Shown: positions 22,484-28,570 of the stretch, in pieces
Layout of the letters: every line of letters begins with the position of its first letter
Position numbering within the stretch: the first letter of the stretch is position 1
Origin: Escherichia coli
GTDB taxonomy: Bacteria > Pseudomonadota > Gammaproteobacteria > Enterobacterales > Enterobacteriaceae
Direction: 5' to 3' (one strand)
Length of the DNA: 64,000 bases
NCBI RefSeq assembly: GCF_013315695.1
Contig: NZ_CP054353.1
Program-made: the position numbers and the translations under genes
Notes under the pieces: generated by a model
The model's database searches: none
What the model was told of the DNA's origin: nothing
What the model saw: only the letters and a program-made list of their open reading frames with translations

Positions 22484-22749
22484 ATGCCCCTCACAATCTT
22501 TTAAAGATTAAGTCTAGGACAGCACACAGGTTAACCAGCAAAAGTATTTGTCATTTTTTCGTCAGTTGTATTATTCCCCTTCAGGATTGTAAGGGGATGT
22601 TTTGCATCGTTTATCGATAACGGGTAGGATGCTGCGCCGATAGTTTTATACCCATAAAGAATAATGGTGATAACTATCATCGCCAGGATGAATAAACATT
22701 GTTCATGGCAACTTATATGACTTTTTCATTAAAGCAATCAGGGAGAGCA

Positions 22750-24361: not shown

Positions 24362-25423
24362 TTACAGCGCAATACGAATCACATCGTCCGGCTGGGTAGC
24401 TTCCTGCTGTTTAGTGGATTTTTGTTTCACACTGACATACAGCGTTTTGCCATCTGCAGACAGCGCCAGGCTGTTCGGATGAGTCGGCGTATCGAACGTT
24501 TTCACCACTTTATAGCTTTTCGCGTCAATCACACTGACTTTACCTGCCTGACGATGCGTCACGTAGGCTTCATTACGCGCTGGGTTAAACAGCACAGCCA
24601 GTGATTCCGGTGCCGCAACCTTCGCAAGAATATTGCCATTACGGGTATCAACCACTAACACTTCTGCCGCTTTAGAATCGGTGATAAATGCACGCTGATT
24701 GGTGGTATCAAGGCTGATGTTGATAAAGAAGTGCTCTTTGTCGTCATCCAGCAGCTTTTTACGGCTGAGGATTTTATTGTCGGCGGTGTCGATGGTAATC
24801 AATTCGCCGTCAGCGTTAGTGGTGTAAAGACGTTTGCCTTTGCTATCCAGCGCTAAACCGGTACTCATTTTACCGGTGTTCTGGATGGCGGTTTTCAGTT
24901 TGATATTCTCGCCATCAACGACCCAAATCACGCTCTCTTTACCAATACCACTGATGTAAACGGTGTTCGTGGCATCATCAGCTACCAGCTCACGCGGTTG
25001 CAGCGGGCGCACCTCTTCCGTGCGCTTACGATCATCCAGCACCAGACGGCCTTTCACTTCGCCCGTTTTGGCATCTATCGCCGTGACCGCGCTGTTTACA
25101 GTGTTACCAAACCACAACGTCTGAGTCGTGTTATTGATGGTGGCACCAAACGGCTTGAGATCGTTATGGATCGCCTGCGTCACTTCCAGAGTAACCGGAT
25201 CAAGACGATAAACCACGCCGCCTTTATCCAGTTTGCGGCTTTGCGAAGTGGCGAGCCACAGCGCGTTTTCTTGCTGGCTATAAGCCATTTCGTAGGCACC
25301 TTTACCTACCGCTTTACGCAGCATTTCTTCTGCGGCCTGCGTACTGAATGATGAAGCAACAAGCAATGAACCTAACAGTAATGAACCACGCAGGCGCGAT
25401 GAAAACAGATGACGTAAATGCAT
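24362..25423 (-). CDS. yncE: PQQ-like beta-propeller protein (periplasmic)
   Basis: 353 aa with signal peptide, synteny. Confidence 0.88.
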   Translation of the reverse strand: MHLRHLFSSRLRGSLLLGSLLVASSFSTQAAEEMLRKAVGKGAYEMAYSQQENALWLATSQSRKLDKGGVVYRLDPVTLEVTQAIHNDLKPFGATINNTTQTLWFGNTVNSAVTAIDAKTGEVKGRLVLDDRKRTEEVRPLQPRELVADDATNTVYISGIGKESVIWVVDGENIKLKTAIQNTGKMSTGLALDSKGKRLYTTNADGELITIDTADNKILSRKKLLDDDKEHFFINISLDTTNQRAFITDSKAAEVLVVDTRNGNILAKVAAPESLAVLFNPARNEAYVTHRQAGKVSVIDAKSYKVVKTFDTPTHPNSLALSADGKTLYVSVKQKSTKQQEATQPDDVIRIAL

Positions 25424-25507
25424 GACGACTCCCTTTGATGAACCGATATTTTTGCTGCTTCACAATGCTTCGCTAAGCGTAATCATCGTTACGCCCTTGT
25501 TATAAAT

Positions 25508-25527
25508 GGGAATGGTAATCATTATTT
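25508..25527. promoter_or_regulatory. Putative Fur box in yncE-yncD divergent intergenic region
   Basis: gggaatggtaatcattattt resembles GATAATGATAATCATTATC consensus. Confidence 0.5.
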
Positions 25528-25665
25528 TCTCAAATGTGGAGCATTTCTTGCCGTTACGACTACAATTTTCTCAATTACTTAACGTATCGTGCCGTTTCGT
25601 TTTCCATAAATTTACAATTTTATTACTATGACGGTGTTTTCCCCATTCTTAACCTGGCTTTTTTC

Positions 25666-27768
25666 ATGAAGATTTTTTCCGTCCAACAGACCGTTTTGCC
25701 CGCACTGCTTGTCCTTTCCCCCGTTGTTTTTGCCGCTGATGAACAGACCATGATTGTCAGTGCCGCACCGCAGGTGGTTTCAGAACTGGATACCCCAGCA
25801 GCCGTGAGCGTGGTGGATGGCGAGGAGATGCGCCTGGCAACACCGCGCATTAACTTGTCTGAATCACTGACCGGAGTGCCTGGTTTACAAGTACAAAACC
25901 GGCAGAACTATGCGCAAGATTTACAGCTGTCGATTCGCGGATTTGGCTCCCGCTCCACTTACGGAATTCGTGGTATTCGCCTGTATGTGGACGGTATTCC
26001 CGCCACCATGCCCGACGGACAAGGGCAGACATCCAACATCGATTTAAGCAGTGTGCAAAATGTGGAAGTGCTGCGTGGCCCCTTCTCTGCTCTGTATGGC
26101 AACGCGTCTGGAGGTGTAATGAATGTCATCACCCAGACCGGACAACAGCCACCAACCATTGAAGCCAGTAGTTACTACGGCAGTTTTGGCAGCTGGCGCT
26201 ATGGGCTGAAAGCAACAGGCGCAACGGGCGACGGCACACAGCCTGGCGATGTCGATTACACCGTCTCAACCACGCGTTTTACGACCCACGGCTATCGTGA
26301 CCATAGTGGCGCACAGAAAAATTTAGCCAATGCCAAACTGGGCGTTCGCATTGATGAAGCCAGCAAATTAAGCCTGATTTTCAATAGTGTGGATATCAAA
26401 GCAGATGACCCAGGTGGGCTAACCAAAGCAGAATGGAAGGCGAATCCACAACAAGCGCCTCGTGCAGAACAGTACGACACGCGAAAAACCATCAAGCAAA
26501 CTCAGGCTGGGTTGCGCTATGAGCGTAGCCTGAGCGCGCAAGATGATATGAGTGTGATGATGTATGCCGGAGAGCGAGAAACGACCCAGTACCAGTCAAT
26601 CCCCATGGCCCCGCAACTTAACCCGTCACATGCGGGCGGCGTGATTACTCTGCAACGCCATTACCAGGGGATAGACAGCCGCTGGACACACCGTGGTGAA
26701 CTGGGCGTTCCGCTCACGTTCACTACCGGCCTGAACTACGAAAACATGAGTGAAAACCGCAAGGGCTACAATAACTTCCGCCTGAATAGCGGCGTGCCGG
26801 AATACGGGCAAAAAGGTGAGTTGCGCCGCGACGAACGCAATCTGATGTGGAACGTCGATCCCTATTTACAGACGCAGTGGCAGCTGAGCGAAAAACTGTC
26901 GCTGGATGCTGGCGTGCGCTACAGCTCCGTGTGGTTTGATTCCAACGACCATTACGTTACTCCGGGTAACGGCGATGACAGCGGTGATGCCAGTTATCAC
27001 AAATGGCTACCTGCCGGTTCGTTAAAATATGCAATGACCGATGCCTGGAATATCTATCTGGCAGCCGGGCGAGGTTTTGAAACGCCGACGATTAATGAGC
27101 TGTCTTATCGTGCTGACGGTCAAAGCGGTATGAACTTTGGTTTAAAACCCTCCACCAACGATACAATTGAGATCGGCAGTAAAACGCGTATTGGTGATGG
27201 GCTGCTTAGTCTCGCATTGTTCCAGACCGACACCGATGATGAAATTGTTGTCGATAGCAGTAGCGGTGGGCGTACGACTTACAAAAATGCCGGAAAGACC
27301 CGTCGTCAAGGCGCTGAACTGGCATGGGATCAACGTTTCGCGGGAGATTTTCGCGTAAAAGCGTCCTGGACCTGGCTCGATGCGACCTATCGCAGCAATG
27401 TGTGCAATGAACAGGATTGTAACGGTAACCGGATGCCAGGGATCGCCCGTAATATGGGCTTTGCGTCGATAGGTTATGTACCGGAGGATGGCTGGTATGC
27501 AGGTACGGAAGCGCGTTATATGGGCGATATTATGGCAGATGATGAAAATACGGCCAAAGCGCCGTCTTATACTCTCGTCGGCTTATTCACCGGGTATAAA
27601 TACAATTACCACAATTTAACTGTGGATTTATTTGGTCGTGTCGATAATTTATTCGATAAAGAATACGTTGGTTCTGTCATTGTCAATGAGTCAAACGGGC
27701 GATATTACGAACCTGCACCCGGGCGAAATTATGGTGTCGGCATGAATATTGCGTGGCGATTTGAGTAA
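25666..27768 (+). CDS. yncD: TonB-dependent outer-membrane receptor
   Basis: Start MKIFSVQQTVLPALLVLSPVVFA inside track ORF; C-terminal ...AWRFE; 700 aa. Confidence 0.88.
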   Translation: MKIFSVQQTVLPALLVLSPVVFAADEQTMIVSAAPQVVSELDTPAAVSVVDGEEMRLATPRINLSESLTGVPGLQVQNRQNYAQDLQLSIRGFGSRSTYGIRGIRLYVDGIPATMPDGQGQTSNIDLSSVQNVEVLRGPFSALYGNASGGVMNVITQTGQQPPTIEASSYYGSFGSWRYGLKATGATGDGTQPGDVDYTVSTTRFTTHGYRDHSGAQKNLANAKLGVRIDEASKLSLIFNSVDIKADDPGGLTKAEWKANPQQAPRAEQYDTRKTIKQTQAGLRYERSLSAQDDMSVMMYAGERETTQYQSIPMAPQLNPSHAGGVITLQRHYQGIDSRWTHRGELGVPLTFTTGLNYENMSENRKGYNNFRLNSGVPEYGQKGELRRDERNLMWNVDPYLQTQWQLSEKLSLDAGVRYSSVWFDSNDHYVTPGNGDDSGDASYHKWLPAGSLKYAMTDAWNIYLAAGRGFETPTINELSYRADGQSGMNFGLKPSTNDTIEIGSKTRIGDGLLSLALFQTDTDDEIVVDSSSGGRTTYKNAGKTRRQGAELAWDQRFAGDFRVKASWTWLDATYRSNVCNEQDCNGNRMPGIARNMGFASIGYVPEDGWYAGTEARYMGDIMADDENTAKAPSYTLVGLFTGYKYNYHNLTVDLFGRVDNLFDKEYVGSVIVNESNGRYYEPAPGRNYGVGMNIAWRFE

Positions 27769-27802: not shown

Positions 27803-27817
27803 GGTAATGACTCCAAC

Positions 27818-28321
27818 TTATTGATAGTGTTTTATGTTCAGATAATGCCCGATGACTTTGTCATGCAGCTCCACCGATTTTGAGAACGACAGCGACTTCC
27901 GTCCCAGCCGTGCCAGGTGCTGCCTCAGATTCAGGTTATGCCGCTCAATTCGCTGCGTATATCGCTTGCTGATTACGTGCAGCTTTCCCTTCAGGCGGGA
28001 TTCATACAGCGGCCAGCCATCCGTCATCCATATCACCACGTCAAAGGGTGACAGCAGGCTCATAAGACGCCCCAGCGTCGCCATAGTGCGTTCACCGAAT
28101 ACGTGCGCAACAACCGTCTTCCGGAGCCTGTCATACGCGTAAAACAGCCAGCGCTGGCGCGATTTAGCCCCGACATAGCCCCACTGTTCGTCCATTTCCG
28201 CGCAGACGATGACGTCACTGCCCGGCTGTATGCGCGAGGTTACCGACTGCGGCCTGAGTTTTTTAAGTGACGTAAAATCGTGTTGAGGCCAACGCCCATA
28301 ATGCGGGCTGTTGCCCGGCAT
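27818..28321 (-). CDS. insB: IS1 InsB
   Basis: Identical translation to other copies. Confidence 0.95.
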
Positions 28322-28515
28322 CCAACGCCATTCATGGCCATATCAATGATTTTCTGGTGCGTACCGGGTTGAGAAGCGGTGTAAGTGAACTGCAGTTGCC
28401 ATGTTTTACGGCAGTGAGAGCAGAGATAGCGCTGATGTCCGGCGGTGCTTTTGCCGTTACGCACCACCCCGTCAGTAGCTGAACAGGAGGGACAGCTGAT
28501 AGAAACAGAAGCCAC
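28240..28515 (-). CDS. insA: IS1 InsA
   Basis: Identical translation to other copies. Confidence 0.95.
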
Positions 28516-28570
28516 TGGAGCACCTCAAAAACACCATCATACACTAAATCAGTAAGTTGGCAGCATCACC

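Follow-up and report, generated by a model that had tools for sequence, protein, structure and literature searches.

A previously reported Fur operator at the yncE promoter of Escherichia coli and its relation to the divergent pqqU gene

Position of the Fur box and quality of the match

The 20-mer gggaatggtaatcattattt, at positions 25508-25527 of the 64-kb stretch of Escherichia coli DNA that was analysed (the window), is almost certainly the known, previously published Fur operator of the yncE promoter. We assign the box to yncE; any effect that it has on the divergent gene pqqU (yncD) is secondary, weak and strain-dependent. The site is an ordinary one. The sequence evidence taken alone is moderately significant, and the question is settled by conservation and by published binding data. 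The features of the region are collected in Table 1.

Table 1 Features of the yncE-pqqU region (positions in the window; strand “.” for the operator as a whole)
Feature	Position	Strand	Basis
yncE CDS, 353 aa	24362..25423	-	NCBIfam NF052280 (YncE equivalog), 562 bits; identical DNA so annotated in RefSeq
Conserved leader block GAAGCAUUGUGAAGCAG, just 3' of the hairpin	25455..25471	-	Complementarity to the core of RyhB (nt 41-59, approximately)
Conserved 7-bp stem-loop in the yncE 5' leader, loop CGAUGA	25476..25495	-	Covariation and RNAalifold
Overlapping Fur site ATAAATGGGAATGGTAATC, 6-bp shift	25502..25520	+	14.02 bits, second best in the window
Fur box, 19-bp operator GGGAATGGTAATCATTATT	25508..25526	.	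Consensus match, matrix score, conservation, published ChIP
Probable yncE -10 hexamer TACCAT, inside the Fur box	25512..25517	-	Conservation in 27 species
Probable yncE -35 hexamer TCCACA, 17 bp upstream of TACCAT	25535..25540	-	Position in a conserved block
Probable pqqU core promoter TTTTCC-18 bp-TACTAT	25600..25629	+	Conserved blocks GTTTTC, TTTACAA and TTAACAT
pqqU (yncD) CDS, 700 aa, ATG at 25666	25666..27768	+	NCBIfam NF041535 (PqqU equivalog), 1312 bits

The preliminary description had placed a close match to the Fur consensus between yncD and yncE. A sequence lookup gave exactly the same coordinates, and the 20-mer consists of the 19-bp operator, which agrees with the 19-bp consensus GATAATGATAATCATTATC at 15 of 19 positions, followed by an extra t at 25527. 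The box lies in the 242-bp intergenic region (25424-25665) between the two divergent genes, the product of yncE being a periplasmic seven-bladed beta-propeller; its yncE-proximal end is 85 bp upstream of the start codon of yncE, and its other end 139 bp upstream of that of pqqU. Of 5426 complete E. coli genomes, 5411 carry the RefSeq annotation yncE and pqqU for the same DNA, and 5410 have the 56-mer surrounding the box at ≥90% identity. The identical 20-mer occurs in K-12 MG1655, K-12 W3110 and CFT073.

On the far side of pqqU, between its stop codon and the 3' end of mcbR, the window carries an IS1 element of 768 bp (27803-28570), with a 9-bp overlap at the junction that is consistent with target duplication. 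The element is missing from K-12 and from isolate AF3 (NZ_OZ547117), which is 100% identical to the window over 8.5 kb to the left of IS1 and 99.95% identical over 4 kb to its right.

The operator is the sole site in 64 kb with at most four mismatches to GATAATGATAATCATTATC, and the same search of the window with at most three mismatches returned no site; the four mismatches include GGG where the first hexamer of the consensus has GAT. A 19-bp matrix was seeded with the consensus and built from the best sites of 14 other Fur-regulated intergenic regions of K-12 (fepA-fes, fepD-entS, fepB-entC, fhuA, fiu, fhuE, tonB, cirA, exbB, ryhB, fecI, fhuF-yjjZ, feoA and sodA), yncE being excluded and the training sites being the best-scoring rather than footprinted ones. 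Scanning the window with it, as had been proposed with the preliminary description, ranks the yncE site first of all 19-mers, at 16.09 bits. When each training site is left out in turn, it scores between 6 and 23 bits, the median being about 16, so that the yncE site is typical of known Fur sites. A shift of 6 bp is the register expected of overlapping Fur sites, and the second site found at that distance (Table 1) forms, together with the main one, a run of NATWAT-like hexamers. Overlapping 7-1-7 half-matches are found at 25507-25521 (4 of 14 mismatched) and 25513-25527 (3 of 14 mismatched). Beyond this element, no Fur-like site of at least 5 bits was found in the 242-bp gap.

How much weight such a match can bear depends on the space that is searched. 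In first-order Markov simulations, a 64-kb sequence has a mean of 0.32 sites scoring 16.09 bits or more, and 28% of the sequences have one or more; the match is therefore unremarkable across the whole window. For 242-bp sequences with the composition of the gap, the simulated probability of a maximum reaching 16.09 bits is 0.0048, and a pair of sites with the 6-bp shift turned up five times among 300 simulated windows. The 28% figure favours a reading in which an AT-rich promoter element resembles a Fur site by chance, or in which another regulator such as MarA binds here, Fur control of yncE being indirect. We regard this reading as very improbable in view of the binding, conservation and promoter data considered below.

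A further weak Fur-like site, AATAATGGTGATAACTATC, lies at 22660-22678 upstream of ansP; with five mismatches and 12.0 bits it is probably a chance occurrence. The ansP gene is down by log2 1.39 in an MG1655 fur mutant (Gao et al. 2023, PMC10164565).

Published Fur binding and expression of yncE

The ChIP experiments available were conducted in strains other than the source of the window, and their peaks were mapped onto it via the identical sequence. In CFT073, a Fur ChIP-seq peak of height 845 is centred at 1711868 (Banerjee et al. 2020), which by our mapping is inside the identical box at 1711863-1711882. In W3110, a ChIP-exo peak is reported at 1524928-1524940 under iron-replete conditions only (Gao et al. 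2023, PMC10164565), and overlaps the box at 1524917-1524936. The W3110 table was relied on because its coordinates map exactly, while in the MG1655 peak table of the same study the gene columns are apparently one row off and the coordinates are those of an older genome version. Binding of Fur upstream of yncE in MG1655 is also reported by Beauchene et al. (2015). Peaks that centre on or overlap the 20-mer in two strains, obtained by two ChIP methods, argue against a chance element or another regulator's site.

The expression data point the same way, and the claim of the preliminary description that yncE is iron- and Fur-regulated in K-12 is confirmed by measurements in fur mutants and under iron limitation. 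In eight of nine E. coli strains, yncE rises by log2 3.1 to 8.1 (9- to 280-fold) in the fur mutant (Gao et al. 2023), YncE protein is raised in a fur mutant (Moriel et al. 2016), and a 16-fold induction of yncE under iron limitation has been published. In CFT073, the ratio to wild type is 147-fold in the fur mutant, 0.93 in the ryhB mutant and 18-fold in the fur ryhB double mutant (Banerjee et al. 2020, Table S1). The difference between 147-fold and 18-fold indicates that RyhB adds roughly 8-fold post-transcriptionally. Fur occupancy of the box and Fur-dependent expression of yncE are thus established by published data mapped onto the present sequence.

A Fur box upstream of yncE has been reported previously. 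According to the Reg-Seq supplement, it is unannotated in RegulonDB, and that work reports no Fur footprint at yncEp. The text of Chen 2007 and of Gao 2023 (IJMS) does not mention yncE. In the literature consulted, neither an in vitro footprint nor an EMSA was found for the site.

Conservation of the box and the genes it accompanies

A scan for YncE with one genome per species gave 79 loci, and the whole gap could be aligned for 27 enterobacterial species. The most conserved 20 nt of the gap in this alignment are the Fur box: 13 of its 19 columns are invariant, compared with 21 of 242 over the gap, and the 120 columns towards pqqU include no invariant one. The invariant core, TAATGATTA..ATTC, is much longer than a -10 hexamer, which is difficult to reconcile with a chance promoter element.

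In nearly all loci of seven genera (Escherichia, Citrobacter, Salmonella, Enterobacter, Klebsiella, Raoultella and Lelliottia), a Fur-like site is present at a distance of 74-87 bp from the yncE start codon. In Kluyvera and Pseudocitrobacter, the genuine box is at the usual position with one base altered; the top-scoring “Fur” matches in these two genera, about 255 bp upstream of yncE, were discarded as the start codon region of pqqU (ATGAAAATCAT).

The box is also retained where pqqU is not. Escherichia albertii keeps it although its pqqU is reduced to a remnant of 178 aa, and several Citrobacter genomes keep it with an mcbR-like GntR regulator or curA upstream in place of pqqU. Judged from these comparisons, the box follows yncE rather than pqqU. 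The E. albertii remnant (locus L018, 2139-2675) is in-frame and fuses the N- and C-terminal parts of pqqU, and the pqqU of CFT073 is frameshifted.

More distant homologues of yncE have other neighbours. In Buttiauxella (locus L083, 377-2896), the homologue is divergent from a gene for a FepA-family siderophore receptor, with a near-consensus box of 24.3 bits, and in Rouxiella a box of 22.0 bits accompanies a different neighbour gene. That these boxes are even better than the one in E. coli is a further argument against a chance origin. In Erwinia (L087, 1685-2905, and L093), the yncE homologue follows entA and entH-like genes on the same strand at a distance of 45-59 bp (entA, 411 bits; the entH-like thioesterase, 231 bits, slightly under the cutoff); a Fur box of its own was looked for at the Erwinia homologue and none was found. 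Taken together, these gene neighbourhoods suggest that YncE has an iron- or siderophore-linked role which is independent of pqqU.

The probable yncE promoter and a likely mechanism of repression

Conservation in the 27 species also points to the probable promoter of yncE. The -10 hexamer would be TACCAT in E. coli and TACTAT or TATTAT in other genera, and the -35 hexamer would be part of the gap's second conserved block, CTCCAC(A/T)TT, which is located immediately upstream of the box with respect to yncE. TCCACA and TACCAT separated by a 17-bp spacer form a plausible sigma-70 promoter, in which the box would extend from about -22 to -3. From this arrangement we infer a yncE start near 25503-25507, which fits the leader hairpin beginning at 25495: a hairpin conserved in the leader would require the start to be upstream of that position.

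The overlap of the box with the probable -10, which would be AT-rich in any case, is compatible with a promoter element whose likeness to a Fur site is fortuitous, and RegulonDB annotates a MarA site at -41.5 of yncEp. That annotation, however, is upstream of the box and without experimental recovery. A candidate -10 hexamer TATAAC (25498-25503, minus strand), derived from a guessed marbox and the RegulonDB position of MarA at -41.5, was rejected because it is not conserved and because its start would fall within the conserved hairpin. A generic sigma-70 scan called neither the likely yncE promoter nor that of pqqU; it gave one plus-strand match in the yncE leader (25459-25486), which is at chance level (1.0 ± 1.2 expected).

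With the box as the Fur operator of yncE, repression is likely to work by ordinary occlusion of the promoter by Fe2+-Fur. In iron-sufficient cells, Fur dimers loaded with Fe2+ would bind the 19-bp box and the overlapping site shifted by 6 bp; as the box takes in the probable -10 and the larger part of the spacer that separates it from the probable -35, RNA polymerase would be excluded. Under iron limitation Fur would depart, leaving yncE transcribed at a very high level, and RyhB, which is Fur-repressed, would raise yncE expression further via the conserved complementary block of the leader. As RyhB is itself repressed by Fur and raises yncE, the two controls would be mutually reinforcing.

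The leader hairpin and the RyhB-complementary block

The stem-loop of the leader was recognised by covariation in 25 species, in which 92% of the alignment cells at the stem are paired, compared with 39-47% for slid controls. Compensatory changes are seen at all seven pairs, G-U pairs are frequent on the yncE-sense strand, and none of 500 shuffles matched the observed score. RNAalifold independently yields the same helix. An Rfam search of 25300-25800 of the window returned no family. Pseudescherichia vulneris and Escherichia sp. ESNIH1 have lost the hairpin region by deletion.

Just 3' of the hairpin, the block GAAGCAUUGUGAAGCAG is the probable pairing site for RyhB, by which yncE is activated according to published work. 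Duplex predictions use the same block in E. coli and in at least 10 other genera; in E. coli alone, the energy of its duplex with the RyhB core is marginal, at 6% against mononucleotide shuffles. Predictions with full-length RyhB were discarded, as they gave meaningless pairings of the whole molecule. The hairpin beside this site could be an undescribed cis-element needed for the activation of yncE by RyhB, and no dissection of the RyhB site and hairpin of yncE was found in the literature.

Regulation of pqqU and the question of a shared operator

YncD is PqqU, the TonB-dependent high-affinity importer of pyrroloquinoline quinone (PQQ). Its cargo is PQQ, not iron, and according to two papers it is neither iron- nor Fur-regulated in K-12. 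In the fur mutants of Gao et al. (2023, PMC10164565), pqqU changes by log2 0.12 in MG1655, which is not significant, by log2 2.95 in W3110 (from 4-5 to 32 expression units, p = 2.7e-51) and by log2 2.02 in 042. W3110 and 042 are the only two of the nine strains in which pqqU responds, and derepression of both genes was not a consistent outcome. The argument of the preliminary description that TonB-dependent receptors are commonly Fur controlled does not extend to PqqU, for which a modest response is seen in these two strains only.

The box could nevertheless be read as a bidirectional operator through which yncE and pqqU are repressed together, in which case PQQ uptake would be controlled by iron. 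There is only the one Fur-like element in the divergent gap, the ChIP peaks have been assigned to both genes, and the increases of pqqU in the W3110 and 042 mutants would follow from it. On the other side, pqqU is flat in MG1655 despite the same sequence, the two papers cited above deny regulation of YncD/PqqU by Fur or iron, and the imported compound is a redox cofactor and not iron. The geometry is also unfavourable: the probable pqqU promoter begins 73 bp beyond the Fur box, whose centre would precede the likely start of pqqU by about 120 bp, and the box keeps its distance to yncE where pqqU has been lost. The effect in W3110 could moreover be an indirect one, for example through supercoiling caused by the 250-fold rise in divergent transcription. 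We therefore consider a shared operator unlikely. With a single site in the gap, a probable promoter 73 bp away and no response in MG1655, control of pqqU is secondary at best, and the box is best described as the operator of yncE.

The two K-12 strains differ in pqqU before fur is removed. The wild-type level is 4-5 in W3110 and about 30 in MG1655, with an identical box, and an approximately 8-fold response to fur is seen only in W3110, where the mutation brings pqqU from its lower baseline up to the level of MG1655. Upstream of the probable pqqU promoter, at 25579-25598 on the plus strand, there is a conserved inverted repeat TTAACG-N8-CGTTAA (CGTTTC in E. coli), possibly a binding site for a regulator of pqqU.

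A broader proposal combines two of the points above, namely that the single Fur operator modulates pqqU some 120 bp away in strains such as W3110 and 042, and that the leader hairpin is a cis-element for activation by RyhB. We put it forward only tentatively and hold it to be improbable as a whole. The modulation of pqqU may then occur through supercoiling coupled to the derepressed yncE promoter, or through spreading of Fur.

Comparison with known Fur-controlled systems

As the operator of yncE, the box has much in common with the classical E. coli Fur boxes (fhuA, cirA, fiu, fhuF, ryhB, sodA and fepA-fes). It is a 19-bp AT-rich inverted repeat of NATWAT hexamers, its score falls within their range, it would overlap the predicted core promoter, it is occupied by Fur only when iron is replete, and the gene is strongly derepressed in fur mutants. 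It differs from them in its four mismatches to the consensus, GGG for GAT among them, and in that the gene under its control codes for a periplasmic beta-propeller and not for a recognised iron transporter.

The bidirectional Fur operators of the enterobactin cluster (fepA-fes, fepD-entS and fepB-entC) repress both of the genes that flank them. The yncE-pqqU region resembles them in having a short divergent gap with the gene for a TonB-dependent receptor on one side; unlike them, it has only one gene, yncE, that is consistently Fur-regulated, and the box is far from the probable promoter of the other.

A parallel is also provided by cirA and shiA, which are under the dual control of Fur and RyhB: as for yncE, Fur represses transcription, and the Fur-repressed small RNA RyhB activates the mRNA. 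The yncE leader contains a conserved block complementary to RyhB, with predicted pairing, and an adjacent covarying hairpin.

Significance

The value of the present analysis is mainly a correction of context, as the TonB-dependent receptor adjoining the box is the PQQ importer PqqU and not an iron transporter. Should pqqU prove to be modulated in this way, iron status would, under some conditions, influence how much of the redox cofactor PQQ is taken up. As for YncE, which is a vaccine candidate, the recurrence of Fur boxes and siderophore genes near its homologues in distant genera supports an iron-related role for the protein, which goes beyond the operator finding itself.
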